Shown here: positions 1-64,000 of the stretch, one piece after another | How the letters are laid out: each line of letters starts with the position of its first letter | Position numbering within the stretch: the stretch's first letter is position 1 | Assembly: GCA_004431415.1 (NCBI GenBank) | Contig: QPMI01000633.1 | Location: 79,497 to 143,496, forward strand | Direction of reading: 5' to 3' | DNA from: Cyanophora paradoxa CCMP329 | Lineage: Eukaryota > Plantae > Glaucophyta | DNA: 64,000 nucleotides | The notes under the pieces: generated by a model | Told to the model about the DNA's origin: nothing | What the model saw: the letters and a program-made list of their open reading frames with translations, nothing else | The model's database searches: none | Translations under genes and position numbers: made by a program

Positions 1-1724
1 TCAACACGTAATTTATCATCTTGTTGGGCAATTTTGCGGAATATTCCATGTCCGCATTCATCCATGTGATCGACAACGATAGCTACTTTGGTTTGCTTTG
101 AGATTCGCCGGTGGAGGTTACAGTTTCGGCATGCCTTCCCGATGAAATTGCCGGATTGGTGACAATGATCGCGAACGGGGAAGTTTTCGTGGGTGAATCT
201 CTGAGAGCAAATATAACAGTTTTTTGTTATCTTGTATTCCGCCTTCTGATCGTCTGTGAGTGGATGCATCGAAATATTTCTAAACAGCGTCTCAACTATT
301 TCGGGTCTGATATCTTGGAGAGTAGCAAAGAGAGAACCGAGAGGATCGGCTCCCTCAAAATGGTATGCTCTCACTTCTTCTCCCATTACCACTCTCAGTG
401 AAACCGCTTTAATCTCACGTTTACTCCTCTGAGCATCGATAGCAACCGAATGATCTTCGACTTTGACATAACAGATCACAGGAAGCCAAACGGTTTTACG
501 TAGATGTTGCAGACCGAATTCAATTGCGCTTCCCGCTTTTGGGCATTTGCCTTTGCTCTCCCTCCAATCAATGCAGCGATTCGCTTCAACATGCAGGTCT
601 AATTTCTCCTGAGTTCTGAAACGCGATAAGCAGGTTTCACAGTAATAAATGCGACCATCACATGCTTTATCAAACGTAGTTTTCAGAAGACGACTAAAAG
701 ACATGATAGTAATGTAGTGTCCCCGATCATCTTCGGTGTTTTCAATAAGTAAAAGGTTAATTTTGGTCTTTCGTCTTGGATTACTTGATTGATGGAGAGG
801 ATAGAAACACTCTTTGGCGTTATCGGCTCCGTAAATGTTAATGGATAAATCGGGGTTTAGTTCTTCGAAACGATCGATTACCTCAGCATCACATGCAATG
901 GGAAACTGAATACCATCGAAATTGAGTTCATTTAACCATCGGCGGTATTGGCTTGGTTCATTGCTCTTGTGTTTGTTAATGTCCTTTCGATGCAGGTAAG
1001 CCAAAATCGCATACTTGAAGCAATCTTGACCGTCGATATTCTTAACGTTCACCGTTGCCTTCTTGGATGCAATCCATTCGGGAGTTGCGAAATAGCATCC
1101 TCCCACAGGTGCATAAGACATGATAATGCCTCTTAAAATTTCGATCTTCTCCAAACGGTAACTATCCACTTGCGTCATTTCCTCTTGCATTTTCTGTAAC
1201 GCTTTGCGAACTTCTGTGTCTATGTTGCGGGATCGGGTAATTACGAAATAATCGCTGTAAATGTATTTGGTGATATAGATGCGCGGATTACCTACTTTGG
1301 TAAATTTGCAAACGAAAGTCAGACGGACTTTAACCGCTCTCAGTTGATCTAAGCGGGTTCTAATGCGTTGCGGTAGACTTGGTGCGATTCTTTCGAGGAA
1401 TTCGATAGCATCCACGACAACTTCATTTCGGGCGCGATAGGTTAACCACGAATACGCTTGATTCATCGCTTGTCCATCTTCAATGTCCGGTTCAATTGCT
1501 CCTAATCTCTGTCCTTCACCCATAAATTCCTCCATTCGTTGCATGCGATCGTAGAGGTCATTTGCAATCTCAGTGAGTTGTCCTAATCGCGGTCGTCTAT
1601 CTAAGATGGTGGCTTCTCTATCGAATTCCGCTTCGGTTATCTCACCGGTAACTAAGAGAGTTCCTAACAATCCAAGTATTTCATTTTTCTTTTCTTTGAT
1701 CAGTCTGTTGGTTTGGCGGGGCAT
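1..1724 (-). CDS. Polinton-type protein-primed DNA polymerase B, N-terminal part (runs off window; not in the ORF track)
   Basis: Hand translation is open from ATG 1724 (MPRQTNRLIKEKKNEILGLLG): PEWIASKKATVNVKNIDGQDCFKYAILAYLH, C2H2-like YCETCL..H, EndoVII-like RDHCHQSGNFIGKACRNCNL; colinear with the PLV-B gene that carries the polymerase motifs. Confidence 0.9.
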   Translation of the reverse strand, partial: MPRQTNRLIKEKKNEILGLLGTLLVTGEITEAEFDREATILDRRPRLGQLTEIANDLYDRMQRMEEFMGEGQRLGAIEPDIEDGQAMNQAYSWLTYRARNEVVVDAIEFLERIAPSLPQRIRTRLDQLRAVKVRLTFVCKFTKVGNPRIYITKYIYSDYFVITRSRNIDTEVRKALQKMQEEMTQVDSYRLEKIEILRGIIMSYAPVGGCYFATPEWIASKKATVNVKNIDGQDCFKYAILAYLHRKDINKHKSNEPSQYRRWLNELNFDGIQFPIACDAEVIDRFEELNPDLSINIYGADNAKECFYPLHQSSNPRRKTKINLLLIENTEDDRGHYITIMSFSRLLKTTFDKACDGRIYYCETCLSRFRTQEKLDLHVEANRCIDWRESKGKCPKAGSAIEFGLQHLRKTVWLPVICYVKVEDHSVAIDAQRSKREIKAVSLRVVMGEEVRAYHFEGADPLGSLFATLQDIRPEIVETLFRNISMHPLTDDQKAEYKITKNCYICSQRFTHENFPVRDHCHQSGNFIGKACRNCNLHRRISKQTKVAIVVDHMDECGHGIFRKIAQQDDKLRV

Positions 1725-1745
1725 CTTTACTATAAAGGAACATTT

Positions 1746-2054
1746 TTATTTTGGATTTTGAACGCGTTTTGAAAGTTTATCTTGAAGTCGCTTTCGTGCA
1801 TGGTTCACATCATGGCGACCCTGTCCCGCTCTCATTTCCTCGAAATCATTTGCGCACTGGTGGCCTCTTCCATTTTCGCAGTATCTATCTAATTTCTTTC
1901 TGAAATGCCTGGGCATCTGATCATATTTACATCCTCCTTTCTCCAAGATCAACCGAAGCACTTTTTTTCTTTGCTCTGCATCTGTCAGAACTGGATCAGA
2001 TCCAAAGCATTCATGATTGAGTCGGGCGAAATCTTCTTTTGAGAATGTGGTCAT
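1746..2054 (-). CDS. Hypothetical viral protein (102 aa)
   Basis: ORF fills the gap between origin-like module and pPolB; preceded by CAAAAAATGAC motif. Confidence 0.65.
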   Translation of the reverse strand: MTTFSKEDFARLNHECFGSDPVLTDAEQRKKVLRLILEKGGCKYDQMPRHFRKKLDRYCENGRGHQCANDFEEMRAGQGRHDVNHARKRLQDKLSKRVQNPK

Positions 2055-2087
2055 TGTGGTGCTCTTGGATCACATCTCTGAAATCGC

Positions 2088-2098
2088 GTCATTTTTTG
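2088..2098 (-). promoter_or_regulatory. CAAAAAATGA putative early-promoter motif (also 4805-4815, 5267-5277, 11326-11336; CAAAAATTGAC at 61736-61746)
   Basis: Same 10-mer on the coding strand 30-100 bp upstream of four PLV-A start codons. Confidence 0.6.
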
Positions 2099-2312
2099 TA
2101 GGCGCTTGTAGGCAGTTAGGCACTTCTTAATCGAGAATTAAAAAGAAGTCCCAAATATATCAACTTGTGTTTTTCAAAACGTTGATTTTATTTTTTATAG
2201 AGAGTTTCCAGGAAAGGTGCCTAAGTGCCTAACGTCAATTAAAAGTGCCTAACCTCAATTGAAAAGTGCCTACTTCAATTATTCAAGTGCCTACTGTCCA
2301 TTTCCAGTAAGG
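2099..2312. repeat. Putative replication origin A: inverted iteron sets (TAGGC.. x3, GTGCCTA x5) around a ~90-bp AT-rich core
   Basis: GTGCCTA at 2217, 2225, 2245, 2266, 2287; TAGGC at 2099, 2109, 2117; directly 3' of the primase-helicase stop. Confidence 0.75.
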
Positions 2313-2358
2313 TATAAAAAAGAATGTATATAGAAATCAGAATCATAACAGAAGTATT

Positions 2359-4755
2359 TTACTCATCATCATCATCAAACTCAACAACAGTAGGTGTCTT
2401 ATCAATCTTCTTCACACCCTTGTAGCCACGATCATAACCAGTTCCAACCTTCTTGCGAACTGCATTCTTGTCATATTTCGCTCCAAGCAAACCCATCACA
2501 GTTTTAATGCGATTTGCAGACATATTCAGTCTCAGTTGCTTGATCTCTTGCTCAACCATCTTGGAAGTTACAGAGTCGGATGAATTTCGAGTGAATTCGA
2601 ACACTGATCTGATCAGAGACATTTCATCACCTGCATCTTCCCGGAATTCATTAATATCCTCAGCAACCTTCCCAGAAACCACGAATTTCTGAGATTTGTA
2701 GGCTTCAAACACCATCCATTCGAATGCTCTAATTATCTCAGGACTTTTTAGCAGAACACTCTTGATATCTTCCGAAGCCAATCTCACACAAGGAGAGTTC
2801 ATTTCCTCAACAGTCTTTTGATCAACGAATTTGTGGGGGTGCTTGAACAATACCATGGTTTGAAGGGTATCAGATGGGGAAATGGGTGGAACATCATTCA
2901 TGATCATCCACAAACGACTTTGGAGGCGAATATTGACCTCATTTTCATATAGAACACGCATGCATTGAACATCACCACCAGATTCCTTCTTTTTGATCAT
3001 TGCACCATTCACCTTAATATTTGTGTTTGAGACATCGAATTTCATCTCTTGGGTGAATGTCAGACGACGAAATTCACAAGGTTTCATCCACTTTAACTTG
3101 GAGGTATCGTTGTCATCTGAGTTCTTATTCAGCAAGAATGCCTCCCCACTGATGGTGTGCACATATCCACTTCCCCAGGTATTTTCATTGAGATTCACAT
3201 AAACCCCCTTACCACAATTGCGTTCACCAATTGATAATCCCCACTGTTTATCTTCGTATTTCCCAGCCATTGCACGAGCTGTAAATTCCAGAGCAGAAGA
3301 AATCGAATCATTTCCGAAAACGGGTTCCAGAATCTTGTCGAAAAGGGTTTGAATATCCGAATCAGATGGCTTGATCACATATCCATCTTTGTCAACAAGA
3401 AGATCCCTCTCGATTCGAGTGGTAGAATAGATCTTGTCACATTTGTCCCATGGTGTGAGCTTCTTTGTCTCGAAATCATACACACCATTTCGGTAGCACA
3501 ATTTTCCAATGGTCGATGACCACATAATATCATTGTAGAACACACGATTATTGGGCAGAAATGCTTTGGCTGTCTTGATAATTCGATCTGCCCCAGTAAG
3601 ATTGGTAGAATATGGCTTCAAGTTACCTTTGTCATCCTCCTTGAACATATAGCACTCCATGCACAATTTCAACATTATATTGTAGACCATTGTGGAATCA
3701 TCAGTCCACAGAAAATCGTCTGTCTGAGCGAATATACGACCATCAGACATGACCACTCGCCCCTCAATCGATTTAACAAATGTGAGAGCAGCTTCACGAT
3801 CATCCCGAACAATATTAAGAGGAGAGGATACACTTTTTGAATTTGTTGGAATCGTAAATCCTTGATCCATTGGTTTAATCATCAACTCAATCTTGTAGCC
3901 AGTGACATTCTCAATATACTTGGTAGCATCACAGAGAATATTGTGGAGACGAGTTTCGGGTAATTCAGGGGCTTTTTCAACCATGCAACCATCATAAACG
4001 AGAACGCCAACTTTTACAGCAAGTGAGGTTAAATACTGACAAAGCGCAATCAGACATTCATTCTCCAATTTGCAGAGAACCATATTAATGGTTGAACCAA
4101 AGATGTTATACTCCTTCTTTCGCTTGCAAATCAAGAAGAAGTTGTGGTTTTCGGGCATGCTTGCAATTTGAGCGTGAATTCCTGTGATTTCGTTCTTAAC
4201 TGCTTTGAACTTGGGGTGGTTCAGCAGTTCCTTGTTATCAATTGAGCCCCCACCCCCGTTTACAACAGAAAGAAACGCTTTCTTGATATCTTCGCGAGAA
4301 AGTCCCGATTTCTTGCTTATATCAGCAATGATACTATCACGATTGTCGACATAATCAGTAAGACCCTCACAAACGATTTCATTTTTTTCACAATACTGAA
4401 TGAGAAGTGTGGGATGCGCATTTTTCATATCGATATCGTAGTAGAAATCGCGAGCAAGAGTGTGGCGGAATTCTCTGGGCATTCCTTGCATTGATGCTTG
4501 CTTCTTCTTGATGTGTTCAAGATTCACGAAATAACGACCAGTATTATGCTTGCATTGATGATATTTAACTTCAATGCGCCCATCTCGCTTCAAATCCTTG
4601 AAATAACGTTGGAGAAGGGTGAGAGTAGCAGTTGCATCAATATCAGGTCGATACTCCAAAGTCTCGAAATTATCAATCAGGTATTTGAGAGTGGAGCGAT
4701 CCACCTTCTCAAAGAGAGCGATTTTAAGTCCGTTCGGTTGCTGAGAGTTGAACAT
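2359..4755 (-). CDS. TVpol (PolA-like primase-polymerase) fused to D5-like SF3 helicase
   Basis: YYDIDMKNAHPTLL, KKAFLSVVNGG and VLVYDGCMV (PolA-like motifs A/B/C); NGVYDF D5_N-like; Walker A GERNCGKG; C-terminal RGYKGVK winged-helix-like end. Confidence 0.88.
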   Translation of the reverse strand: MFNSQQPNGLKIALFEKVDRSTLKYLIDNFETLEYRPDIDATATLTLLQRYFKDLKRDGRIEVKYHQCKHNTGRYFVNLEHIKKKQASMQGMPREFRHTLARDFYYDIDMKNAHPTLLIQYCEKNEIVCEGLTDYVDNRDSIIADISKKSGLSREDIKKAFLSVVNGGGGSIDNKELLNHPKFKAVKNEITGIHAQIASMPENHNFFLICKRKKEYNIFGSTINMVLCKLENECLIALCQYLTSLAVKVGVLVYDGCMVEKAPELPETRLHNILCDATKYIENVTGYKIELMIKPMDQGFTIPTNSKSVSSPLNIVRDDREAALTFVKSIEGRVVMSDGRIFAQTDDFLWTDDSTMVYNIMLKLCMECYMFKEDDKGNLKPYSTNLTGADRIIKTAKAFLPNNRVFYNDIMWSSTIGKLCYRNGVYDFETKKLTPWDKCDKIYSTTRIERDLLVDKDGYVIKPSDSDIQTLFDKILEPVFGNDSISSALEFTARAMAGKYEDKQWGLSIGERNCGKGVYVNLNENTWGSGYVHTISGEAFLLNKNSDDNDTSKLKWMKPCEFRRLTFTQEMKFDVSNTNIKVNGAMIKKKESGGDVQCMRVLYENEVNIRLQSRLWMIMNDVPPISPSDTLQTMVLFKHPHKFVDQKTVEEMNSPCVRLASEDIKSVLLKSPEIIRAFEWMVFEAYKSQKFVVSGKVAEDINEFREDAGDEMSLIRSVFEFTRNSSDSVTSKMVEQEIKQLRLNMSANRIKTVMGLLGAKYDKNAVRKKVGTGYDRGYKGVKKIDKTPTVVEFDDDDE

Positions 4756-4954
4756 CTTGGGCTCTTCTTATACTTAATGGAGAAAAGAGTTTCTCCGGAT
4801 TCCTGTCATTTTTTGGCGGCTAACCTTTAAGTGCTTGATATCTCCTCAATTACCAAAAACGGCAATCGGGAGATGGTTACGGATCTATCGAAGAATATCG
4901 ATAGACCGCTCGAAAAATGAGTAATTGGGTTCAGCGGTCAAATGGGTGTTTTCC

Positions 4955-5191
4955 TTAATACTTTCGTGGACGTCCCCGCGACTTGTTTTCGATTCCCTCC
5001 CGCTCCTTACGACGATAATATGAAGCGAGTGATTGCGCCTTCTTATACTCCCGATAAACCGGGTCTTCGTTGTAAAGCGTTCGCTTCCTGAGAGCATCTC
5101 TCATCTTGTAATTGGCGCGGGTCTCATCTTCTTCATCGCCGAATTCGACAACGCTAATCATGTCTTCGGTTATATGAATTACAGTCGCCAT
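4955..5191 (-). CDS. Small basic protein with C-terminal AT-hook-like motif
   Basis: Ends KSRGRPRKY; upstream TATATATAA and CAAAAAATGAC. Confidence 0.65.
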   Translation of the reverse strand: MATVIHITEDMISVVEFGDEEDETRANYKMRDALRKRTLYNEDPVYREYKKAQSLASYYRRKEREGIENKSRGRPRKY

Positions 5192-5399
5192 GTTCCCCTT
5201 TATATATAGTTGAGAAAATCTTTTACCACTCTGTATTATGCGTTACGTCTTTAAGTAGTTTATGGTGTCATTTTTTGGTGACCAAAGCCAGTTGGTGTCT
5301 ACGTTCTTCAATTGCAGATTTAACAGCGTAAATCTTTCGTTTCGATAGTATGATGGAGTAGATCTTTTCGTATGACATTTGATACCATAACCAAAGATA

Positions 5400-5618
5400 T
5401 TATTTATGATCGTTTTGCGCAAACGATCGGCGACGGACAGTCTCTGTTTCTGTAACGGTGACTGTCTCAGTTGTTATCGAATCTTGTGATTGCCTTCGCC
5501 CTCCATCGCTTCCACCATCTGAGAAATCCATTTCGAATTTCGTATCGCAGCAATCATTGTGACAATCGGTTATGCAATGCATCTCAAACATCTCAATGAT
5601 CTTTTTCAGAAACTCCAT
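5400..5618 (-). CDS. Small hypothetical viral protein
   Basis: ATG at 5618 (MEFLKK), co-oriented with neighbours, Cys cluster HCITDCHNDCC. Confidence 0.45.
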   Translation of the reverse strand: MEFLKKIIEMFEMHCITDCHNDCCDTKFEMDFSDGGSDGGRRQSQDSITTETVTVTETETVRRRSFAQNDHK

Positions 5619-5644
5619 TGATTCCCTCTTTAAACAATATATAA

Positions 5645-6376
5645 TTAAAGCCAAACTCTCCGCTTGTATGCTGTGGGAGCTACACCTTTGTCGACTTCCG
5701 CTTTGGTAGCACCAGGTTCAACAGTTCCCTTTTGGGTCTTTGTCTTCAACTCATCTACCGCTTGTTCATCAATTTGAGTCTCCTTCTTACCAATAAACTG
5801 CTTATCGGGAAGACCGGTAATACCCATTCGGAATACTTCTTTGCGCAGCATTTCCTTGATTTTAGCGCGTTCTTTCTTCTCAGTTACATACTGTTCAAGA
5901 GCGCTTGATTTCGCTTCCAGATCCTTTAATTTAGCGGTCATCTCATCCCATTGCGCTTTCGGGATTCGGTGGATGTTTTGAGTTGGCGCAACCTTGTAAG
6001 TAACTTCACCAGCCATCGATTGAATTACCTTATCGGATTCTTTGGAAACACCTTCACCCTTGCGAGCGAGTGAAAGATCTTTTAGACCAAGTTCACGATC
6101 ATCGGCAGCACCGATAATCCGGCGCGCACCTTCACCGACCGCCTTCATCTTCGAGACTTCCGGCGTAATGTTCAGTTGCTCACTTTGGGAGGTTTGCGGC
6201 GCTTTATCACCGGGCGCTTCTTCATACGCCGCATTTAAGGGATCTTCTTCCTGTTGCGATGGTTTCACTTCGCTCATTCCGTTGAATTTCATGGGTGTAG
6301 TGTTGAGAGATCCGTGACTTTCACCGCCGGAATATGACATTGCACCAGCGGGAACACCTCTACGTTTCGGCGGCAT
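5645..6376 (-). CDS. Hypothetical charged protein (possible core protein)
   Basis: 243-aa ORF next to the ATPase; basic N-terminus MPPKRR. Confidence 0.75.
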   Translation of the reverse strand: MPPKRRGVPAGAMSYSGGESHGSLNTTPMKFNGMSEVKPSQQEEDPLNAAYEEAPGDKAPQTSQSEQLNITPEVSKMKAVGEGARRIIGAADDRELGLKDLSLARKGEGVSKESDKVIQSMAGEVTYKVAPTQNIHRIPKAQWDEMTAKLKDLEAKSSALEQYVTEKKERAKIKEMLRKEVFRMGITGLPDKQFIGKKETQIDEQAVDELKTKTQKGTVEPGATKAEVDKGVAPTAYKRRVWL

Positions 6377-6404
6377 TGTATATTTATAACATACAGAGAT
6401 AATT

Positions 6405-7187
6405 TTACAGTCCCCTCTTATATCGCATCAACTTATTCGTGTGAACAGCGCTTTTAATCTCTTTCGGCGCTTCCTCCTTCTCAGGCGGTTTTAATTCATC
6501 TTCTTTCTTTTTTGGCTTTCTGTGAAACCGAGGAAACTTAAAGTCTTTTACGAGTTCCGCTTTATCAACATAGTATTCCACCGAATAATTCGCAGAACTC
6601 CAAATGAGAAACTGATAGGAGTGAACGTATTCCTCAAACATCTTATAGAAAGCGTCTTTATCCCGCATGATATTGTATTCTTCTTCAATGGCTTCCAGTT
6701 CTTTGCGATTGGCGGCACTTAGGAACATTGCATAATCCGAGTTGACGCGAATGGTTGAAGAAACCTTACGCAATTTCTGAGTTATGCAAATAATCGAAAT
6801 TTTCGAATGGCGCCCACGACTGTAAAGAGAACCAATAATTTTATCGCGGGTTAGATCGACTATCTCATTATCTATAAGATCATCAAGAACGACACACAAT
6901 TGGTTAACAGGTTCTCCTTTCTCAATTTTCTCTTGTCGTTCATCGAGAAGTTTAGCGATGTAAGGCGCATCCCATTTACCAAGTTGTAATGTAGCGACAT
7001 TATCCCAAAAATGATTGAAACTCGTCCCACTTACAACAAGAATAACATCTAACTTTTTCGCATCGTGAAGTTGTTTTAGCCAATACTTCACCGCTTCTGA
7101 TTTACCAGTCGCAGATTTTCCAATTGCTAAGACACGGAATGGGGGTGTTATCATTTCAGCGGCATTAAACTCGGGAACGTCTGACAT
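6405..7187 (-). CDS. A32/FtsK-like genome packaging ATPase
   Basis: Walker A GKSATGKS, Walker B VVLDD, RGRH..ISIICITQ; likely start MSDVPEF at 7187. Confidence 0.93.
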   Translation of the reverse strand: MSDVPEFNAAEMITPPFRVLAIGKSATGKSEAVKYWLKQLHDAKKLDVILVVSGTSFNHFWDNVATLQLGKWDAPYIAKLLDERQEKIEKGEPVNQLCVVLDDLIDNEIVDLTRDKIIGSLYSRGRHSKISIICITQKLRKVSSTIRVNSDYAMFLSAANRKELEAIEEEYNIMRDKDAFYKMFEEYVHSYQFLIWSSANYSVEYYVDKAELVKDFKFPRFHRKPKKKEDELKPPEKEEAPKEIKSAVHTNKLMRYKRGL

Positions 7188-7248
7188 GGCGTAATAGATT
7201 CTTCTTAATAAAGACAGATAAAAATAACGAAATCTTACTGATAATGGT

Positions 7249-8646
7249 TTAGAGATTAATGCGGCGAATTCCGTCCTTATCGACAATAATGAACGAATGC
7301 ATGAGAGCGCGAACGTTAACAGTAATTGTGCGATCAGCAGGAAGATACAGAGTGAGGAACGATGACGACGAGTTCGTGAGATCAACATATCCAGATTGGG
7401 CAATGTTGCGAATCGCCTTCTCACCATCAACAGCGAATGGGAATCCGGTAAGGACGTAACGGTTTGCTTCCTTGTCCATATTCGAGCATTTGAAGGCATC
7501 GGCGATGAGTTCCGCACCTTTGAGTAGCGGGATTGGCTCAGTTGAATACAGACGCTGTCCGTTAATCTCACAGGTCATCGTGATATCCTTCGCATTCGCA
7601 AGCGTTTTAAGGACGCTGTGAGAACCGTTAGAAGAATCGACACCATCAGCATCACGAACAGAGACAAGAAGAGCATAAACCAGACCAGAGATTTGGCTAA
7701 GATTGATTCGGTTGGGTTGAGTGTTACCTTTCGCAGCAACACCAATAGCATCAACGAAACCGATATCGAGAGCAGGAATAGCCATCCCCGTGGTCTTAAC
7801 TTTCTCAATAACAGTAGCGAACAGTTCATCAGAAACGTTAATAGCATGCATGTAGAGACGAGGAGACTTAATGGAGATGTAATGGGTCATTGGTGGAACA
7901 GTTCCAGCAACTTCGAACCCAGTAATACCGCCAGTGGTAATGTTTTGACCGACATTAGCAAGAGTTACACCAGTAGCGCTTCCGAGACCGTCATTTGCGG
8001 TTTGATCCGCAGCGGTTGTCACAACTGGAAGAGCGCGACCGCCATAAGAAGTTTCAAGATATCCCTTGTTAGCTTCTTTGAACCAAACAGTGATAACAGC
8101 TTCGCCTGAGAGAGCGCCAAGTGGTAGGTAATGGTTCAACCACGGCACCGGAATTTCAACGAAGAAAGCGCCACCTTTACGGTTGGTTCCGTGAGCGGGA
8201 ATTCCATGAAGCATTCCCATTGAACGCTTCTTTTTCGCCAGCTGATCCTCAGAATAGTAGACCAGTGGGAAAATCGCAAGAAAATCGCTTGGGACGTGGT
8301 AAGTATACGAGCCATACGAGAATTCAAGACGCTCTACAAGCGCACCAACGGGACGGGTGTAACCATTTCGCACAAGGTCGTCATCACCAGTAAAAGCGGT
8401 TAGTTCGGGAAGATCAAAAGCGAGTTCGATTTTACCAACAAAGTTGTAGCGGGGAAGTTTGAAAGAAACGCGTTGACCAACGTTGTTGTCATAGGTTGTC
8501 GAGGGACTAACGGTTACCAGAACGGGTTTCGTCTTCGATTCGAGACCAAGCATAAGCGAGTTATCGAGGAAGAACGCTTTGGCTTCCTCGGGCGTTGTTA
8601 GCGCCTCTTTCAGAGAAAGACGTTGAAGGGTCGAGGTAACATCCAT
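7249..8646 (-). CDS. Major capsid protein (double jelly-roll, PLV-type)
   Basis: 465 aa, beta-rich (SFKLPRYNFVGKIELAFDLPEL, FFVEIPVPWL..YLPL); lies between ATPase and minor capsid genes. Confidence 0.8.
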   Translation of the reverse strand: MDVTSTLQRLSLKEALTTPEEAKAFFLDNSLMLGLESKTKPVLVTVSPSTTYDNNVGQRVSFKLPRYNFVGKIELAFDLPELTAFTGDDDLVRNGYTRPVGALVERLEFSYGSYTYHVPSDFLAIFPLVYYSEDQLAKKKRSMGMLHGIPAHGTNRKGGAFFVEIPVPWLNHYLPLGALSGEAVITVWFKEANKGYLETSYGGRALPVVTTAADQTANDGLGSATGVTLANVGQNITTGGITGFEVAGTVPPMTHYISIKSPRLYMHAINVSDELFATVIEKVKTTGMAIPALDIGFVDAIGVAAKGNTQPNRINLSQISGLVYALLVSVRDADGVDSSNGSHSVLKTLANAKDITMTCEINGQRLYSTEPIPLLKGAELIADAFKCSNMDKEANRYVLTGFPFAVDGEKAIRNIAQSGYVDLTNSSSSFLTLYLPADRTITVNVRALMHSFIIVDKDGIRRINL

Positions 8647-8700
8647 TCTGTTTTGCTTTTACTATACAAAAATATAAAAATTCTGTGAATGATCCTTAAT

Positions 8701-9705: not shown

Positions 9706-9733
9706 CTTCTTTTATCTATAACCATATAATAAA

Positions 9734-11237: not shown

Positions 11238-11460
11238 GACACTGAATTACGTCTGAGAAAATCTTTTACCCGTTTTACTCTATACTATCGCTTCTTCCTT
11301 AAATCATTTTGGGTTGCCCACAAGCATCATTTTTTGAAAGTAAGACCTCCGTAATATCTAAATTGATAGATGAGAGAATAACAGAGATCTTTTCAGGGTT
11401 GGAGAAAGCGGAGAAGCAGATAGCAGCGCGATTTCCGAGTTAATCACACTGTTAATGGTT

Positions 11461-11845
11461 TGGTAGGCACTTTATATTTCTCAGATAATGAAAGTGAATA
11501 TATCATATCTCTATGATTCATAGATGTCTTACTGAATATCGTTTGGTAGGCACTTTTTAATTGAAGTTAGGCACTTTTAATTGACGTTAGGCACTTTTAA
11601 TTGACGTTAGGCACTTAGGCACCTTTTCTGGAAACTCTCTATAAAAAATAAAATCAACGTTTTGAAAAACACAAGTTGATGTATTTGGGACTTCTTTTTA
11701 ATTCTCGATAAGGAAGTGCCTAACGCGCCTACGCTGCCTACCGCGATTAAAAAAAGTGCCTACTTCGATTAACCCGCTCCATTTCAGTAGCCCGTTTTAT
11801 ATCTAAATGATATCCGCCGATCACGATAAAAAAGTGCCTAACCGT
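11461..11845. repeat. Subterminal inverted copy of origin-like module A with extra iterons
   Basis: ~11559-11724 is a near-identical reverse complement of ~2116-2280; several TAGGCAC / GTGCCTA copies. Confidence 0.88.
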
Positions 11846-11860
11846 TTTCATCTCAGCGAA

Positions 11861-12273
11861 ATCTCATCGATTGTTTAATTGGACATAATGCTGTAACCAT
11901 CTCTTCCAACAAAATTACATCGATTAATTCAATTGAGATTGATACACCTAAGATACAATGTTTTTACAGTAAAAAACAGAATCCAATCTTATCAATTGTT
12001 TAATTGGACATAATGCAACTCTGGGGTCATTTTCGATACAGTAAAAAGCTTACCCGAATCTCATCGATTGTTTAATTGGACCTGATGCAGTAACCATCTC
12101 TTCCAACAAAATACGCCGCAATCTCAACGATTGTTTAATTGGACATAATGCAGTAACGAGTGAATTATTTTCATCCGATATTTCATCGATTGTTTAATTG
12201 GACATAATGCAGTAACCATCTCTTCCAACAAAATATGCCGCAATCTCATCGATTGTTTAATTGGACATAATGC
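11861..12273 (+). repeat. Subterminal array of six 31-bp repeats (ATCTCATCGATTGTTTAATTGGACATAATGC) with 28-94 bp spacers
   Basis: Copies at 11861, 11986, 12058, 12121, 12180, 12243. Confidence 0.9.
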
Positions 12274-12624
12274 AACTCTGTGTGAATTTTTGCGTTTTAC
12301 GATAGAATGGGCGGTGGACTACTTCAATCGTGATTATATCATAAATTTATGTTCCTTCAATCGAGATTATATCGAATTTGCATAAAATACATATTAATCG
12401 CGTTTATATCAATCGCAAAATACGTATTTTACATTTAAATACAAATTAATCGCGTTTATATCATTGAATCAATTGAGAAATACGTAATTTATCAAAACTT
12501 TATATAAATTTCATAAAATCATAATTTAATTGATATTATACCAATTAATTTAATCGAATTTATTTAAATTTAATTGATTTTATTAAACATTTTGATTTAT
12601 TTTTTAAATATTTTCGATTAATTT

Positions 12625-12709
12625 ACACATAAAGAAATACAAATTTAAATCCAGGAGCGAAGCGCGAAGCGCGAAGCGGAGGGATTTAAATTTGTATTTC
12701 TTTATGTGT
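12625..12709 (+). repeat. Terminal hairpin of PLV-A: 28-bp perfect stem, 29-nt loop with (GCGAAGC)x3
   Basis: 12625-12652 ACACATAAAGAAATACAAATTTAAATCC is the exact reverse complement of 12682-12709. Confidence 0.95.
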
Positions 12710-21260: not shown

Positions 21261-21602
21261 ACGGAAAGGCAGGCCGAGAAAGTTCAGCTCGTGGCCCTGA
21301 CGCACCGGGTGGAGATTCGCATCAAAAAGATCCTCGAATGATGAGTGGTAGGAGGGCTGGAAGAGGGACCTGCGTGCGCGGTCAGAACCTCGGAATCAGA
21401 AGCAGAGAGCGCGGCGATCCGACAGACCTGATTTCGTCTGGATCAAGATTCGCGGCGAGCCTGGCCTTAAGCAACTCCTCATTAAGGAACCTCTGGAAGC
21501 GTCTGCAGGGCGTCAGCGTGCCCAGCGCGCGGGGCCCGCAACCGCGCACCGGCTCCCTGGACGCCCTGCGGCTCGGAGATCAGGAAATCAAGAAGAATGT
21601 GA
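21261..21602. repeat. 342-bp direct duplicate of 24658-24999 (exon/intron fragment of a minus-strand gene)
   Basis: Near-identical sequence; one mismatch seen. Confidence 0.92.
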
Positions 21603-44638: not shown

Positions 44639-44733
44639 ACACATATGTATAAACTTATTTAAATCCCTCGTTCATCTCGATCGCTTCGCGATCTCGATTC
44701 ACTCAGGATTTAAATAAGTTTATACATATGTGT
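44639..44733 (-). repeat. Terminal hairpin of PLV-B: 28-bp perfect stem, 39-nt loop containing GATCGC-GAA-GCGATC on the minus strand
   Basis: 44639-44666 ACACATATGTATAAACTTATTTAAATCC is the exact reverse complement of 44706-44733. Confidence 0.95.
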
Positions 44734-45006: not shown

Positions 45007-45308
45007 ATTGAAGTAGACCACCGCCCATTCTGTATCGAAAAACGCAAAAAGTGTCACAGAGTTGCATTGTGTCCAATTGAACAATCGATGAGATTGCTGA
45101 TTTGCATTTTTGCACCCAAAAACTGTCACAGAGTTGCATTATCTCCAATTAAACAATCGATTATAATGGGGATGGGCACTTTTGCACCCAAAAAGTGACA
45201 CATAGTTGCATGGTCTCCAATTAAACAATCGATGAGATTGCGGATGTATATTTTAGATCGAAAAGTGTCACAGAGGTGCATGGTCTCCAATTGAACAATC
45301 GATTAGAT
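45007..45308 (-). repeat. Conserved 25-bp box plus four copies of the same 31-bp subterminal repeat
   Basis: Box 45007-45031 matches reverse complement of 12304-12328 at 24/25; repeats at 45064, 45136, 45208, 45278. Confidence 0.9.
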
Positions 45309-45420
45309 TGCATATGTTCTATAAAACAGAATAATTGAGATCAAGTGTGACAGGTAGTATTCAAATGATATTCAGTAAGAGATATTTTTGTTTTTGAGAC
45401 AAGCAGTAAGAGGGGTAGAA

Positions 45421-45890
45421 TGTCTGTGACGCCTGTGACGGCTGTGACGCCTGTTTTCAGAAGTCTGTCATTTTTGAAAATTTTAAAAAGTTTGAAAATA
45501 GGCGTCACAGGCGTCACAGGCGTCACACACAATTAAATTAGGTGTCACAGCGAAATTGCAGACCATTTCCAGTAAGACAACTTCGCATTTTCAAAAAGGT
45601 TGATTAATGGATAGTGTTTTGGAGGTGTCAGAGGTGTCACAAGACGGATTTCAGTAAGACAAGAATATATTCTCGAAAATCTCAGTAAGAGAAAGAGATT
45701 CCATTTTTAATTGGGTGTGACGCCTGTGACGGCTGTGACGGCTGTTTTCAGAAGTATGTAGATTTTTGAAATTTTAAAAAGTTTGAAAGTAGGCGTCACA
45801 GGCGTCACAGGCGTCACAGTCAATTAAAGAGGCGTCACAGTCAATTAAAAAGTTGTCACACCCGATTATCTGACCATTTTCAGTAAGACC
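45421..45890. repeat. Two subterminal copies of origin-like module B: (TGTGACGCC)x3 - AT core - (GGCGTCACA)x3+
   Basis: ~45425-45550 and ~45716-45860, both near-identical to 61840-61972. Confidence 0.88.
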
Positions 45891-55889: not shown

Positions 55890-56090
55890 TGTCACCTGTG
55901 ACATAATTAATGTGGTCACCGGTGACTTAATTTGTCACCGGTGACATAATTTCTTATGTGAATGTGGTCAACAATGACTTAATTTGTCACCGGTGACATA
56001 ATTTCTTTTGGTGAATTCGGTCATCGACGACATAATTTTGTCACCGATGACATAATTTGTCACCGGTGACATAATTTGTCACTGGTGACA
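55890..56090. repeat. Array of ~9 copies (some degenerate) of palindrome TGTCACCGGTGACA, often at 19-bp period
   Basis: Copies at 55890, 55914, 55933, 55985, 56039, 56058, 56077 plus degenerate ones. Confidence 0.9.
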
Positions 56091-56625: not shown

Positions 56626-58014
56626 TCTATTTCCTCTGACCACTCCGTAAATTAAATCGAGTTTGGGTGCAGTATATGTTCCTTGTGGTTGAAAAGTCAT
56701 TATACATCTCTGACTGTTAACTTCTGATAATTTCTGGGTTCCTGCTATGGTCAACTTCTTTAATTCTTTCTCTACTCTACCCTTCTTTTGTGCTCTTGCT
56801 TCTGTAAGGGTTCTTTTGGAACTTCACTTGCTTTTCTATGCCCTCCTTTCTGATTGCTGAATCAACCCTGGCTTCCTCTTTTGCCTGTTCAAGGGCATCC
56901 ACTGTGGGAGTTTCATGATACTCAACACTTTAATGGGCAGCAGTTCATGAAAAGCGAATCTACCATCAACTATCTCACCACTGGACTTCTGATTCTGAAC
57001 TTGAAGCCCTCTCTGCCCTCCACACTATAAACAATTCGAGACCAATTAACTCCCTGCTTTGCAAATGGGTTCTTTTCAACTTTCACTCTCACAAACATTC
57101 CAGGTTTCAGGCATCAAGATACTCAATCGATTTCTTGAATCTCTGATCCTCCATATTCACTATCTCTTTGTAGTGGGCTTCTGTGTCTCTGCTGGTTTTC
57201 TCTTGGTTGCAGAGTGAATGGTATTATTATAATTAAACTCATATCACCCAACACATCAAAAAATCGTGCAGTATTATTTGCAATGCAGTAGTTTGTGATC
57301 AATCTCTTGATCTGTCTGTTAAAGGCTTCAATTCGACCTTGGTTCTGTGATCTGCAACATCACTTAGTTGATGCTCAATGAATTTCGTTCCCAAATAATC
57401 TGTGAATAACACATTGTAAATTCGCTTCCACTATCACTCTGAATGCGAACAATAGGTCTGGGGACTCTCTGTTCAAGTTGCTTGAATGCTGCAAGTGTAG
57501 TAAGAGCACTTTTGTCTCTCATTGGAATAATGAACCCTGTTCTCAGGGTTGACTCCATTGCACTCATAAATGTATCATAACCATCATTCTGCTTTTTGTA
57601 TGCAGGAAAGAAGAGCAGATCAATCACATAGGTATCAAGGGGTTGCCTAATTGGAATCATGGGATCTCTCTTTCGAGATAGGGTGGGTGCATTAATTTGG
57701 ACAACCTCCTGCTTATCATACCATTCTCTCATCTTCTTGTAGTTCTCCTCTGGTAGTTCCTGTCTCATTGCAGTAAATCCCTTGTAGCCTGTCCTGGGAT
57801 CATAGAACTTCTTAGCAATCTTTGACTCTTTTGGTGCTGTCTCAGCTGGGAGTGTCTCTGGGATTAATTGCTTGACCATCTCTGATCTTTTTAATATTCG
57901 ACTGCTCTTCTCCTCCACTGGAACTGTGATGGGCAGGATATTCCCTCGATCTTCAATTGCCTCTTTTCTCACAATTCTTGGTGGTTGTCTCAATCCTATT
58001 TGTGTAGAAGGCAT
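56620..58014 (-). CDS. Retroviral-like (rve, DDE) integrase, Polinton type; several apparent frameshifts, 3' end approximate
   Basis: FYDPRTGY, YVIDL, IQSDSGSEF, then in shifted frames QGRIEAFNRQIK and YNNTIHSATKRKP. Confidence 0.88.
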
Positions 58015-58197
58015 CTTTACCTTATCTCTCATATAATAAATGCAAGAGTCTGTGTGGAAGGAGAACACAATTCCAAACTACTTTGCAATTGAGCCCAATG
58101 ATCCAGGATTAAGATGTATATGGCTGCTGCATTTAATTCGCGGTTTGTTACTTCTTGGAGAGCGAAACCAAAGAAAAAGAAAGATCAATGAAGTAGA

Positions 58198-61100
58198 TTA
58201 GAGCCCAAATGGAATGCTGTGAATTCCATCGTCTAATATCTTCCTTTTGCTATCGAGTTGGTTTAGAGCCACCCTTCTGCTCTCCAAATCATATAGGTTG
58301 TGGTCTTGCCTTCGCTTGTTTACTACTGCTACTGTTTTGGTGATGCCTTCAAACAGGCATCTTTTGAAATCATCAAAGTGAACCTCTTTTGAGGAAGTCC
58401 CAGACATCTTTATTTTATCAAAGGTCTCAGTTCTGAAAGCATAGAGTTTCGATCTCAGACCTACATACTCCACAATCTTTGCATTGGGAAACTCGTTTTT
58501 ATATTTACCTGGAATCAAACGATTGCTCCTATCAAAGAGAGGGTGGGAGGGATCATAATTACTGCAATCCAGGTGTTCAGAAATTCGCTTCATCTCATTA
58601 TTTAGATCATTGGTATGCAGCAGTAGGCAGAAAGAATCTGTATCATGGAATAGTAGCTCTGCTGTTTCCCAAGTTCTCCTCACCACATCAAAAAAGAACC
58701 TGCTATTATGGAGTTTCGCAAAATCCAGCACGAAAGCACCAATTGCAACAGGTTTATCTAAGTGAACATGCTTGGAATACATCTCAAAGGCAACAGCATT
58801 TTCGTTTAATACATTGGTTGCCTTGATGAGTGGACTTGCAGCATATTTCTTGCAGAGTTTCTCACTGTTGCAATCTTTACCACAGAGCGACCCCTGCATG
58901 ATTCGAGGCATTTACCATAGATTGCATTGTTCATTAATTTAAAGAAGTCACTCTCGAATCTGGACATAGATTGGCGCCTCAATTTCGTATTTAGATCAAT
59001 ATAACTATTCATAAATGCAGAGGTTGCAAATGAGAGAACCCTGTGAACCTTCGTGATTATAATACCTTTGCTCACAAGATAGACCAAGAGAGGTTGGGAA
59101 ATCACATAGTTGTTTTTGGGTGAGAATGTTGCTGTGAGTTTGGGGTCTTTGCTTATCTTCTCACCTGTGATATCCAGTAACTTTCTTTGATACCCACCCA
59201 GCATTTCGGTGTGACATGCTCTTTATTCACTACAAGTGGAAAATCGTAATGATCTGTGAGAGTTTGTGGGTATTCCAGGTCAACTTCAATGAAGGCACTT
59301 CGTCCTGGGGTCTCTTTAAGTGCCTCTGAGACATCTTCCCATCGAAAATCGCCAATGGCAGTTCTGACTGAGAGCAAACCATACAGATTATTTGCATCCA
59401 AGAGAACTATATGTCATCTGGGTTTTCCACCTTTGCATATCGAGTAGGCATTGTAGCAAACCCACCTCGAATTGCCCTCTCAATAAATTCGTATTGCCCT
59501 ACATCACTGATCTGCTCAATCTTTGCTCTGGTATAAATTAGCATTGCATCCCAGGATAATCCAGGAGCCGAAACATAATGGGCAGGATCTAATCCATATT
59601 GGGAAAACGCCAATTCTCGGAAAGTCTGGAATTTACCCATTAGATCACTTGCATCCACTGCCTGGAAGTCCATGAAATGCGAAGCATCAATGAATTTCCA
59701 CATGCCCCATTGCAGGGAGAGTATTGGTCGAAATTCTTGCTCAGAATCTCAACACGAAGTCTATCATCTTGCTGTGCAATTTTGCGGAATATTTCGTGTC
59801 CACATTCATCCATGTGATCCACACAATTGCTACCTTGGTTTGCTTTGAGATTCTCTGTGGAGGTTGCAGTTTCGGCATGCTTTCCCAATAAATGCTCCTG
59901 ATTGATGAACAAGGTCTCTCACTGGGAAATTCTCATGGGTAAATCGTTCGGCACAGATATAACAGTGTTTAGTGATCTTGTATTGTGCTTTCTGCTCTTC
60001 TGTGAGTGGGTGCATTGGATATTGGTGAATAGAGTGCGGATTACTTGGGGTCTGATCTCTGTGAGAGTGGTAAACAGAGCACCAAGTGGATCTGATCCTC
60101 GAAATGATGAGAGATCACCTCATCCCCCATCACAACTGTTAGAGAAACCGATTTTACCTCTCTTTTACTGCGGTTCTCATCAATTGAACCGAGTGACTAT
60201 CCATTTTTACATAGCAGATAGTGGGAAGCCACACAGTTTTGCGAAGGTGTTGAAGCCCAATGCAATTTGACTTCCAGATTTCGGGCATTTACCTTTGCTC
60301 TCCCTCCAATCAATGCAGCGATTGGCTTCTAAGTGAATGTCCAGCTTCTCCTGAGTTCTGAAACGAGACAGGCAGGTCTCACAGTAATAAATGCGACCAT
60401 CATGGCTTTATCAAAGGTGGTTTTCAGAGTCTACTCAGAGACATGATGGTGATATAATGCCCTCTATCATCCTCTTCGTTTTCGATTAATAAAAGGTTAA
60501 TCTTGGTCTTTCTCCTGGGTTGCTGGATTGATGGAGAGGATAGAAACACTGTGCTTGATTATCTGCACCATAAATGTTGATACTCAGTTCAGGGTTCTGC
60601 TCCTCAAATCGATCAATAACCTCTGCATCACAGGCAACTGGAAACTGGATCCTTCGAAATTGAGTTCGTTTAACCATCTTCTATACTGGCTGGGTTCATT
60701 GCTCTTGTGTTTATTAATATCATTTCGGTGCAGGTAAGCAAGATGCATACTTGAAGCAGTCTTGACCATCAATATTCTTCACATTCACAGTTGCTCTCTT
60801 TGATCCAAATCCACTCAGGTGTTGAGAAGAAGCAACCACCCACAGGAGCATAAGACATTATAACCACTCTCAGCATCTCAATGCGATCCAGTCTGTAACT
60901 GTCCACTTGCATCATCTGCTCCTGCATGGATTGAAGGCATTTCGCAGTTCAACAAATATTTTCGTGATCTTGTGATGACAAAGTAATCACTATAAATGAA
61001 TTTGGTGATCCACAACCCTTGATCACTCACTTGGTGAATTTACAAATGAAGGTCAACCGAGTCTTAATTGCTCTCAGGTCTTGGAGTTTCTGTCTGAGTC

Positions 61101-61451
61101 TCTGAGGTAGAGTGGTGCAATTCTCTCCAAGAATTCAATCCATCTTGATAACCTCCCCTCTTGCTCGATAGGTTAACCAAGAATATGCTTTGTTCATGGC
61201 TTCCCATCCTCAATCTCGGGTTCAATGTTCCCAACCTTAACCTTCATCCCTGATTCCTCCATTTTCTCAAAACGATCATAGAGGCGATTTGTAATTTCTG
61301 TGAGTTGAGATAATCTTGGTCTCCTATCCAAGATTGCTGCCTGGCGATCATATTCGAATTCTGTAATATCACCAGTGACTAAAAGGGTTCCTAAAAGACC
61401 GAGTATTTCGTTTTTCTTTTCTTTGATGATTCTATTGGATTGGCGGGGCAT
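58198..61451 (-). CDS. Protein-primed DNA polymerase B, fragmented by many small indels
   Basis: YGLDPAHYVSAPGLSWDAML, DANNLYG, FFKLMNNAIYGK, HDTDS, GLRSKLY; N-terminus colinear with 1-1724. Confidence 0.92.
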
Positions 61452-61830
61452 CTTTTACTTTAAGGGAACATATTATTTTTGGGCGTTTTAAACGCATTTC
61501 GCATTTTTCAGGTTCTAATGATTCGCACATTCGTGCCTTTGGGGACATATACATTTACTGTGTCGAGTCTGCTTGCATAAACGCTTCTTTTGATAGGTCT
61601 ACCATTAATGCTCTGATCTTTGCAATATATCCGCCACCTCTGCAATATCATTCTTTTCGACAAGCTGCCCGCTGAATTTCATCGAAATAATCCATTTTCT
61701 GTCAGTCAAGGAAAACGCAATCCCTTAAATCGCCAGTCAATTTTTGTCAAAACACACCGATTTCGATACGTTTTTATATTGTCCAATTATTATTCGCGAA
61801 AGTGATCGACCCACAGGGGGGAGTCTGTGG

Positions 61831-61991
61831 TTAATTGGGTGTGACGCCTGTGACGCCTGTGACACCTGTTTTCAGAGGTTTGTAGATTTTTGAAATTTTA
61901 AAAAGTTTGAAAGTAGGCGTCACAGGCGTCACAGGCGTCACACTCAATTAAAAAGGTGTCACAGCTGTCACACAAACCATTTACAGTAAGG
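61831..61991. repeat. Putative replication origin B directly 3' of the primase-helicase
   Basis: TGTGAC(G/A)CC x3 (61840-61866), 49-bp AT core, GGCGTCACA x3 (61916-61942), two further TGTCACA. Confidence 0.78.
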
Positions 61992-62041: not shown

Positions 62042-64000
62042 TTACTCATCCCCACCTTCAACATCACTGTCATCCACCAACTTGCGACTATGCTTCTTTT
62101 TGATCCCAAAGTAGCCACGAGCAAGAACACCATTGACTCGCTTTCTCTCAGCCTTCACATTAAAGACTTCGCGAAGTCTCTTCAAGATAGTGCATTCTGT
62201 GATTTTCTCATCAGATTTGCCCATGTGATCCATCTTAAAGTGACTGATAATGGACTCACTTGTGGCGAAATCCCCTTGACTCTTGGTGAGTTCATAACTC
62301 TCACGAATCCATTCTCCAATCTTGTCATTCTCATTGAAATATTCAACACCTTGATCAACAATGGACTGGGGTGGTTTGGTGACGAATTCATTGAGAGAAT
62401 GGGTTCTCCACATTTCCAGGAGAATGGACATATGCGCCATTTTATAATCGTCATCATTCTTCATTAGGCGCATTAGAGTGGTGTCTGCTTTCTTCTCACC
62501 AGGCTGAGGATCGACCTTGAAGACATTTTCGAATCGGTAGTAGATAATTCGCCTTTGGATTGCTGCATCTGGTTTACTGATTCCCAGGTTGTCATTTGTG
62601 GACAAGAACAACTGGAACATGGGAATGAATGTAACAAGATCTTTGAAAAGAGCTCGAACCTTCATCTCATTCCCACCAGTAACCTGTTTGATTTTGTTCA
62701 GTTGAAGCATATCACCATCTTCTGCTTCATTACTGAAAACAATTCGTTTACCAAGAATGCAAGCGAGTTCTGGGGAAGCCTCTGACGAACTCTTCTTGGG
62801 TTTAGTCCAATATGTCATGTCCAGTGACCCATAATACTCACCAAATGTGTCTTTCACCAACTCTTGGAGCAGTGATTTCCCATTTGCTCCAATTCCAGTC
62901 CAGCAAGTGTATCTCTGATTTTCTGTCAAACCACTCAGGGCATAGGCGATTAATCCCAGCATGAATTCGCGGTCTGTATCCGATTCAATAATATCTGCAT
63001 AGATGGATTTAATCTTTGCAACCTTCTCTTGGTCAATTTCTGTGGTGTAATCGTAGCCAACAGTCTTACTCACCATATCATATGGGAGTCCCTGTCGAAA
63101 AGTCATGGAGTTCAAGTCAAATACACCATTTGTGAACCCAATGATGTTGGGAACAGTATCAAGTCTCTCGAAAAAGGTCTTGTCACTGAACAGAACTGAA
63201 AGATCAGACATAAGTGCAGTTCTGTATGTAGTCTGTTTGAGGCTCTTAGCAATTCCCAGCAGAATCTTTGACCTTTCCTCCAAGGAATTGCGGTTCTCTT
63301 CATCACGAAGAGCTCTCTGTGCGAGTTGAACAGAACGTTGAAGATAAACTGGACAGACCTTGCAGCTCAAACAGAGAAAGATTCGCTTCCCAGTTTCATC
63401 CATCTCCCAAATCCCACATACATCATTGAACTTGAACCAGGTCTTGTTGGAATACTTGTATTTGTCTTGCAGAACAAGATAGGCAACCTGTGCAACATCA
63501 TAATGGGCACCATCAGATCCAGCAGACCGATCAATCAGATTTTCGATATTCGCATCTGTCTCTTCCTTCACACGAATTGTGATAAGTCGCTTCTTGCAGT
63601 TTGCACTGTAACTCGAAACAATATATTTGTCCTTCTCCTTCCCTTGAACAATATACCAATTGTTCGAGTCATGGCTTCCCTTGCAGCAGGGACAGACCAG
63701 ACCTTTGTTCTCAGCAGTGAAATTGTATCCCATCTTGGTCTCATTGATGATTGTGGGCAAGATGAAACCGAATTCTTCGAGTTTAGAAAGAATATGTTTC
63801 TGCAAATTCTCCTCAGCGCACCTTGCATAATAAGAATGTGCACCTTTGGGGAATTCGTAGTTTTCAACAATCCACTTTTGCAACTCAGCAGTGGGTTCAT
63901 TTAACTCACACTCAGATGCCCATGGCTCTCTGATCCATGTTTTGTTGGGACTGGGGCAAACATTAATCACCCCAGCAGTCCCAGTGGATGCAATCGTTTT
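62042..64000 (-). CDS. D5-like primase-helicase (probable Prim-Pol/AEP N-terminus off window, Zn finger, D5_N, SF3, winged helix)
   Basis: Frame open to the window edge; GVINVCPS..KTW, CPCCKGSHDSNN, IGFTNGVFDL, GIGANGKS, IKQVTGG, RGYFGIK. Confidence 0.9.
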   Translation of the reverse strand, partial: KTIASTGTAGVINVCPSPNKTWIREPWASECELNEPTAELQKWIVENYEFPKGAHSYYARCAEENLQKHILSKLEEFGFILPTIINETKMGYNFTAENKGLVCPCCKGSHDSNNWYIVQGKEKDKYIVSSYSANCKKRLITIRVKEETDANIENLIDRSAGSDGAHYDVAQVAYLVLQDKYKYSNKTWFKFNDVCGIWEMDETGKRIFLCLSCKVCPVYLQRSVQLAQRALRDEENRNSLEERSKILLGIAKSLKQTTYRTALMSDLSVLFSDKTFFERLDTVPNIIGFTNGVFDLNSMTFRQGLPYDMVSKTVGYDYTTEIDQEKVAKIKSIYADIIESDTDREFMLGLIAYALSGLTENQRYTCWTGIGANGKSLLQELVKDTFGEYYGSLDMTYWTKPKKSSSEASPELACILGKRIVFSNEAEDGDMLQLNKIKQVTGGNEMKVRALFKDLVTFIPMFQLFLSTNDNLGISKPDAAIQRRIIYYRFENVFKVDPQPGEKKADTTLMRLMKNDDDYKMAHMSILLEMWRTHSLNEFVTKPPQSIVDQGVEYFNENDKIGEWIRESYELTKSQGDFATSESIISHFKMDHMGKSDEKITECTILKRLREVFNVKAERKRVNGVLARGYFGIKKKHSRKLVDDSDVEGGDE

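Follow-up and report, generated by a model that had tools for sequence, protein, structure and literature searches.

The window analysed here, 64,000 nucleotides of contig QPMI01000633.1 of Cyanophora paradoxa CCMP329 (positions 79,497 to 143,496), holds parts of two elements surrounded by host DNA of 67% GC: the right part of element A (positions 1-12709, 41% GC) and the left part of element B (44639-64000, 40% GC). By their sequences, A and B are related polinton-like elements in eukaryotic host DNA. At the same position upstream of orthologous pPolB genes they carry very different primase-helicase genes, each followed by a cassette of opposed short repeats (iterons) whose repeated word differs between the elements. 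A matching cassette stands in the terminal region of each element. The cassettes, as candidate replication origins, are the subject of this report (Table 1).

Table 1. Positions of the features of elements A and B within the window
Feature	Position	Strand	Basis or detail
A: pPolB gene, 5' part, continues beyond window edge	3..1724	-	75% nucleotide identity to B 59749-61499
A: specific 102-aa open reading frame (ORF), within swapped segment, no known family	1746..2054	-	sequence searches
A: gene-adjacent cassette, 3+5 opposed GTGCCTA-type iterons	2099..2311		93-bp core 73% AT, CAATT(A/G)AAA linkers, CCATTTCCAGTAAG flank
A: TVpol(PolA)-SF3 primase-helicase, predicted C-terminal winged helix, 798 aa	2359..4755	-	Zamilon match, structure model
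A: A32-type packaging ATPase	6405..7499	-	Pox_A32 E 1.9e-10
A: likely double jelly-roll major capsid protein (MCP)	7249..8646	-	ESM Atlas search
A: terminal-region cassette, 11 GTGCCTA-type iterons	11464..11840		11546-11732 is an inverted copy of the gene-adjacent cassette, 177/189 columns identical (94%)
A: terminal-region 59-72 bp repeats, common to B	11857..12300		70% over 417 columns to B 44895-45309
A: right-end terminal palindrome (ACACAT...ATGTGT)	12625..12709		-31.5 kcal/mol, 0/200 shuffles as stable
B: left-end terminal palindrome	44639..44733		-30.8 kcal/mol, 0/200 shuffles
B: terminal-region 72-bp repeats	45030..45330		B word TGTCACA in 3/4 units
B: terminal-region block, two full cassettes (45425-45576, 45716-45887), 17 YGTCACA iterons	45346..45887		inner copy against gene-adjacent cassette, 126/134 columns identical (94%)
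B: third array, 13 GTCAC words, mostly GTCACCGGTGAC palindromes holding the core of the B word	55891..56089		word search
B: probable rve-type integrase piece, weak	57364..58032	-	DSGSEF motif by eye; PHROG transposase E 0.098
B: pPolB gene, frameshifted in window	58198..61453	-	homology to A, DNA_pol_B_2
B: gene-adjacent cassette, 3+5 opposed GGCGTCACA-type iterons	61840..61990		49-bp core 78% AT, CCATTTACAGTAAG flank; long imperfect palindrome
B: D5-like SF3 helicase, predicted C-terminal winged helix; N-terminus cut by window end	62042..64000	-	D5_N + DUF5906

Helicase genes and cassettes at a common locus

The 5' regions of the two pPolB genes share 75% nucleotide identity over 1779 columns, and their alignment ends slightly upstream of the start codon, at A 1769 and B 61499. 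The helicases encoded upstream are 22% identical over 440 residues. The contrast first noticed in a sequence-only reading of this DNA, a superfamily 3 (SF3) helicase of TVpol type in A against a very different D5 protein in B beside orthologous polymerases, is thereby borne out. The swapped segment of A also contains the 102-aa ORF, for which Pfam and PHROG searches gave no match and tblastn found no counterpart elsewhere in the window; the same method ruled out homology with the corresponding region of B.

On the evidence of its predicted structure, the A protein is of the TVpol-S3H kind, a family A polymerase-like N-terminal domain fused to an SF3 helicase. Among viral proteins it matches the Zamilon replication protein best (E 1e-50). 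In the model (mean pLDDT 81), residues 6-298 match the Klenow fragment (Z 15.5, root-mean-square deviation (rmsd) 4.1, 278 aligned), the SF3 part matches vaccinia D5 (Z 28.5) and PriRep of the Staphylococcus aureus pathogenicity island (SaPI) SaPI5 (Z 23.3), and residues 705-786 match RFX winged helices (Z 8.3-8.5, rmsd 2.2-2.8). Within the polymerase-like domain, D107, D109, N112, K158, D255 and G256 are invariant across 101 aligned rows; primase activity of this PolA-fold domain is a prediction of the literature. The A helicase had no tblastn match among phage records, and all scores of an ESM Atlas search with its TVpol domain lay below 0.9. The model of the B protein (mean pLDDT 74.7, first 140 residues poor) matches African swine fever virus C962R (Z 34.8), residues 318-765 of SaPI5 PriRep (Z 28.0) and RFX5 (Z 10.3, 81 aligned). 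The two closest relatives of the B helicase have a Prim-Pol domain (PF09250 in P0030, weak in P0029) and share with it a C-x-C-C...H motif, a candidate zinc site. A winged-helix domain is predicted at the C-terminus of both helicases, and both models match SaPI5 PriRep (7ola/7om0) to residue 765, into the C-terminal domain.

Read contigs of four runs were aligned to A and of four to the pPolB-helicase stretch of B, their summed depth being no copy number and serving for ratios only. In run X5, depth along A is 5,298-10,533 over pPolB, 751-1,306 over 1721-4730 and mostly above 6,000 from 5591 to 9030; runs X4 and X1 repeat the dip over 1721-4730, which marks the A segment as a minority allele at a common locus. 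Contigs exact to the A and B helicases reach depths of 718 and 3,374 in X5, 158 and 644 in X4, and 13.5 and 60.7 in X1, and diverged alleles of both A-like and B-like helicases are also present. The bin over the B cassette has a depth of 27,704 in X5, against 3,660-8,081 over the helicase, with similar ratios in X4, X1 and X3, as expected for several cassette copies per element. These ratios are consistent with a multi-copy family whose members carry one or other helicase allele and several cassettes each; A and B helicase types coexist in the same host. Helicase gene and word block have been replaced non-homologously between flanks common to A and B.

The two words are sharply partitioned between the elements. 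A has 15 copies of GTGCCTA (0.26 expected) and B has one (0.69 expected); of GGCGTCACA, B has 15 (0.01 expected) and A none. These counts, together with shuffles, rule out chance repeats. An assembly artefact was likewise rejected, the cassettes being covered by read contigs of several runs, which break there. The first iteron lies 65 bp (A) or 69 bp (B) beyond the stop codon. Of the inverted iterons described by the sequence-only reading some 50 bp past the stop, the two opposed sets around an AT-rich core therefore stand, but the distance is that at which the CCATTT.CAGTAAG flank ends. This flank and the CAATT(A/G)AAA linkers are common to both cassettes while the words differ, as the same reading had seen and as the word counts and the alignment of the stop-side flanks (0/1000 shuffles score as well) confirm. 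Homology of the two AT cores was rejected, since 850/1000 shuffles score as well. The proposal that helicase and origin arrived as one mobile block fared worse: the words differ on a partly common scaffold that includes the stop-side flank, which argues against a simple foreign block.

CAGTAAG adjoins every cassette of both types (45373-45887, 11534, 2305, 61984), with six copies in the B terminal block, and CAATT(A/G)AA, the cassette linker, is also the core of the terminal repeats common to A and B. Both motifs are candidate sites for a family-wide factor.

Matched cassettes in the terminal regions

The sequence-only reading had overlooked further cassette copies that stand 9-16 kb from the gene-adjacent ones, at the same position in the terminal regions of A and B. 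They account for about half of the word copies in A (11464-11840) and two thirds in B (45346-45887). In both elements they are flanked by common outer repeats and by a common 3' end of the S-adenosylmethionine decarboxylase (AdoMetDC) gene, and the blocks themselves give no blastn match between A and B. The repeat word has thus changed both beside the helicase gene and 9-16 kb away. We take these matched terminal copies, drawn from two elements, as the best evidence of functional coupling between helicase and word. The AdoMetDC gene lies at the inner edge of the B terminal region (45920-46321); A keeps its 3' end alone (11336-11440, 63% identity over 35 residues).

Both visible ends begin with ACACAT, followed inward by AT-rich DNA and then by the 59-72 bp repeats, which are about 70% alike in A and B. 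The right end of A and the left end of B, the one end of each element within the window, are homologous in inverted orientation, and their repeat regions are read as terminal inverted repeats (TIRs). The A counterparts of the 72-bp repeats of B carry neither word. The ends themselves are palindromes of 85-95 bp with GCGAAGC-type apices, despite the presence of pPolB in both elements; in the accessible text of 10.64898/2026.07.28.741278, similar palindromes of Halocafeteria elements go mostly with non-pPolB replicases.

The match between gene and terminus could be passive, gene conversion having carried an allele-linked intergenic repeat into the terminal repeats without any role today that depends on its sequence. 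The 94% identity of the copies does imply recent copying, kin share words through linkage, and most TVpol genes of the survey described below have no strict cassette. Yet the differences between cassette copies mostly fall outside the words, the outer repeats of B carry the B word where their A counterparts do not, and enrichment at a specific position recurs in unrelated viruses and prokaryotes. We consider this explanation improbable.

Cassettes and words among relatives

A profile of A relatives yielded 160 loci (80 kept of 243 in viral contigs and 80 kept of 564 from a scan of part of the metagenomes), from which 100 TVpol-SF3 genes were retained after 85% clustering and removal of those that were open, shorter than 500 aa or followed by less than 300 bp. 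Cassettes were called by a word-blind detector as two opposed clusters of an exact 6-mer with at least 5 copies and a gap of 25-170; because exact words are required, it under-calls them. Strict cassettes were found downstream of 20/100 TVpol-SF3 genes, upstream of 9/89 and downstream of 3/626 other genes. Counted by non-coding gap, they occupy 18/80 gaps downstream, 10/66 upstream and 6/221 elsewhere (shuffles 0/1000). The core is more AT-rich than its locus in 17 of the 20, and in 5/29 loci the word of that locus is clustered a second time, against 13/808 tests with foreign words. Sixty of the 100 loci encode an A32-like ATPase; no surveyed locus matched a profile of pPolB, MCP, integrase or the small A ORF. 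Outside members of the A/B family were sought by single-protein scans of viral contigs with either helicase, which found no locus, and the MCP alignment and the common terminal-repeat pattern likewise matched none. For the B type, 52 dereplicated D5-like genes were obtained from 80 loci kept of 517 in a partial scan; most of these genes are on large-virus contigs.

At three loci (L050, L056 and L067) same-word cassettes stand on either side of the TVpol-SF3 gene, and at L067 a third copy lies some 470 bp short of the contig end. Such bracketing raises the question of whether the cassettes mark the borders of a mobile helicase unit, serve its recombination or are bound by a different protein of the element; passages of 10.64898/2026.10.13.758929 and PMC11296320 take replicase-bracketing repeats as signs of mobility. 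Candidate proteins would be the small A ORF, which sits inside the swapped segment, and the integrase, near which the third GTCAC array of B lies. However, the 5' end of the A helicase gene has no second cassette, phages and prokaryotes without the small A ORF have these words behind their helicase genes, and opposed arms around an AT-rich core suit melting more than recombination, which makes a boundary or integrase role quite unlikely.

Blind scans with the two words led repeatedly to helicase genes. Fifteen of 18 loci with the A word lie at helicase 3' ends (VapE 10, AAA_25 3, DUF3987 1, DUF5906 1) and represent about five unrelated groups. For the B word, 3/8 viral loci lie at helicase 3' ends and one at a 5' end, as do 21/39 genome loci at 3' ends (AAA_25 8, DUF927 6, D5/DUF5906 6, VapE 1), 6 of the 39 having no ORF that ends nearby. 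Phages and prokaryotic genomes, then, also have both words behind helicase genes, and the presence of the words at unrelated helicase 3' ends supports an origin role in general. The word as a marker of helicase family is ruled out, a single word being found with four families. Six loci (L267, L275, L278, L280, L293, L305) belong to one Paludibacteraceae genome and have the B-type pattern beside genes that, where identified, are not helicases; they are possibly mobile-element ends.

Whether the word is tied to one part of the helicase was addressed with 32 cassettes, which comprise 30 distinct 6-mers. Nearest tree neighbours share words above chance in all three domains (p ~0.0005, same polarity), and linkage would make kin share words in any case. 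Mantel tests of word against distance over the whole tree were not significant (p 0.05-0.33), with correlations near zero. According to the sequence-only reading, the iteron motif should correlate with the phylogeny of the C-terminal winged helix. The data do not support this expectation: the correlation is no better than that with the N-terminal domain (rho 0.05 and 0.14, respectively), and one word goes with four helicase families.

The slight excess for the N-terminal domain (the remaining value being 0.02) bears on the idea that the cassette is an origin read by the primase/polymerase domain or as a pRN1-like stem-loop. Word similarity averages 2.79 in pairs related in the N-terminal part alone, 2.60 in pairs related in SF3 alone and 1.75 in unrelated pairs; the chimeric pairs behind this comparison (7 and 6) are non-independent and do not separate the domains. 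The B cassette folds into a single long hairpin (-45.8 kcal/mol, 0/200 shuffles as stable), and GTG is present in both window words, while pRN1, as described in PMC4234260, depends on a stem-loop that follows orf904 and starts priming at GTG. The A cassette, on the other hand, folds weakly (-19 kcal/mol, 2/200 shuffles), and GTG/CAC is found in only 11/34 word cores. An N-terminal or stem-loop reader is in our judgement unlikely.

Candidate origins and known systems

SaPI origins, as described in PMC9371898, lie immediately behind rep and contain 6-12 iterons, with two or more to either side of an AT-rich centre, facing in opposite directions; in SaPI5 the C-terminal wing of PriRep binds the iterons and the helicase self-loads (10.64898/2026.10.17.759575; PMC9371898). 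The SaPI-like layout claimed by the sequence-only reading agrees with this description, with 3+5 opposed iterons directly after the gene and an AT-rich core. By this analogy, the cassettes are probably SaPI-type replication origins at which each element's own helicase would load itself. Helicase hexamers would bind the opposed iterons on either side of the core and melt it, and the fused PolA-type (A) or Prim-Pol (B) domain would prime, either by itself or before pPolB takes over. A change of helicase allele would be followed by copying of the gene-adjacent cassette into the terminal repeats, which would keep helicase and ends matched. A broader proposal, which we offer tentatively and rather doubt, is that the word acts as a fast-changing password in primase-SF3 polinton-like viruses (PLVs) and virophages: a helicase swap would rewrite it at the gene and at both ends, and co-resident types would be unable to share replication proteins. 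The incompatibility-like groups suggested by the sequence-only reading are not supported here.

Several observations weigh against origins read by the cognate helicase. The co-variation of terminal word and helicase comes from two elements with one end each. Both elements encode pPolB and end in palindromes, and either could start replication without an internal origin. Among the surveyed relatives, 80/100 TVpol-SF3 genes have no strict downstream cassette, including L027, among the closest relatives of A, and only 1/52 D5-like genes has one (L108, with an A32 gene), so that a D5 fold does not imply iterons. Word similarity shows no closer fit to the C-terminal domain than to the N-terminal one, and L034 and L235 share GTAGGA despite unrelated SF3 and C-terminal parts. 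The B word stands beside DUF927, AAA_25, VapE and D5/P4 helicases, and the A word beside VapE, DUF3987, DUF5906 and AAA_25 proteins. Finally, SaPI Rep1 discriminated poorly between origins in vitro, according to a passage of PMC9371898.

The likeness to SaPI5 PriRep5 lies in a fused primase-SF3 helicase with a C-terminal winged helix, predicted here, and in opposed iterons with an AT core after the gene; A and B also differ in helicase and word as separate islands have separate Reps and words. Unlike SaPIs, they are eukaryotic linear elements with pPolB, terminal repeats, palindromic ends and extra terminal cassettes; the primase domain of A is PolA-type, and iteron binding is putative here. 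An A32 ATPase, a jelly-roll capsid-like protein, pPolB and palindromic ends place them outside the SaPIs and phage-inducible chromosomal islands. ORF904 of pRN1 is likewise a primase-SF3-winged helix protein with an origin just downstream of its gene, although this origin is a stem-loop without iterons (PMC4234260). Phage P4, invoked as a model by the sequence-only reading, fits less well than SaPI5 or pRN1 because the primase of P4 alpha is of Toprim type (PMC4234260), against a PolA fold in A and Prim-Pol in the relatives of B.

Replicase swapping in PLVs and virophages is already known (PMC4642659; PMC8547959; PMC12220804; 10.1101/2025.10.09.676808; 10.64898/2026.10.13.758929; 10.64898/2026.07.28.741278). 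The A protein belongs to the TVpol-S3H kind of Sputnik, Zamilon and PLVs, and the B protein to the AEP/D5 kind; the accessible passages of the TVpol-S3H and AEP-S3H accounts describe no iteron origin (PMC4642659; PMC12220804). As in published replicase mosaicism, PolA- and AEP-helicases interchange beside common modules, pPolB may co-occur and terminal palindromes are present (10.64898/2026.10.13.758929; PMC8547959; 10.64898/2026.07.28.741278, in the parts available); what differs in A and B is that the swap is visible together with its cis sequence, the word changing at the gene and in the terminal region. The matched terminal iteron copies are the new element. Such cassettes may be among the 'small repeat arrays' and palindromes indicated in Figure 6 of 10.64898/2026.10.13.758929. 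The end-module model in the available text of PMC11296320 proposes inverted repeats as the origin for the primase-helicase and reports that Gezel-14T has a repeat of >300 bp both within its TIR and downstream of the end module; 'iteron' is not named in that text, and the A and B helicases are internal rather than beside the TIR. A search of titles and abstract starts, with subscription papers thinly covered and preprint figures and supplements outside its range, found no published description of an iteron origin in PLVs or virophages; on the virophage side it led to work on a Vibrio satellite.

For the start of replication in these viruses, where the published guess is the terminal repeats, the cassettes provide a defined candidate of 150-210 bp. 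A and B form a natural allele pair with different words, to which about 30 further helicase-word pairs can be added. If the proposed origin role is true, the self-loading SaPI-type origin extends to eukaryotic viruses, and frequent replicase swaps that do not break the replicon are explained.

Among the remaining genes, those of A include a packaging ATPase and a likely double jelly-roll MCP, two features of a polinton-like virus, identified by the Pox_A32 and Atlas matches. The MCP assignment is an Atlas lead of moderate strength (score 0.98 to a viral cluster with Capsid_N in 18% of members, a low recognition value), and two relatives were found. In B, the downstream piece of pPolB matches DNA_pol_B_2 at E 2e-4, under the curated cut-off, and the gene has many single-base indels that are mostly absent from read contigs, which points to decay of that copy or to assembly error. 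The neighbouring integrase piece is one that we take to be of rve type from its DSGSEF motif. Near it, in a long non-coding stretch, the GTCACCGGTGAC array is followed by an 11-bp CCGAAACTTCA tandem array (56112-56233). In the region 46808-55428 of B, fibre-like genes stand in a row (C1q, phage tail repeat, H-lectin), accompanied by a fragmented patatin-like phospholipase and an F5/8 type C domain. In the host DNA between the elements, 21261-21560 and 24658-24957 form an identical 300-bp direct repeat with 3.4 kb spacing.

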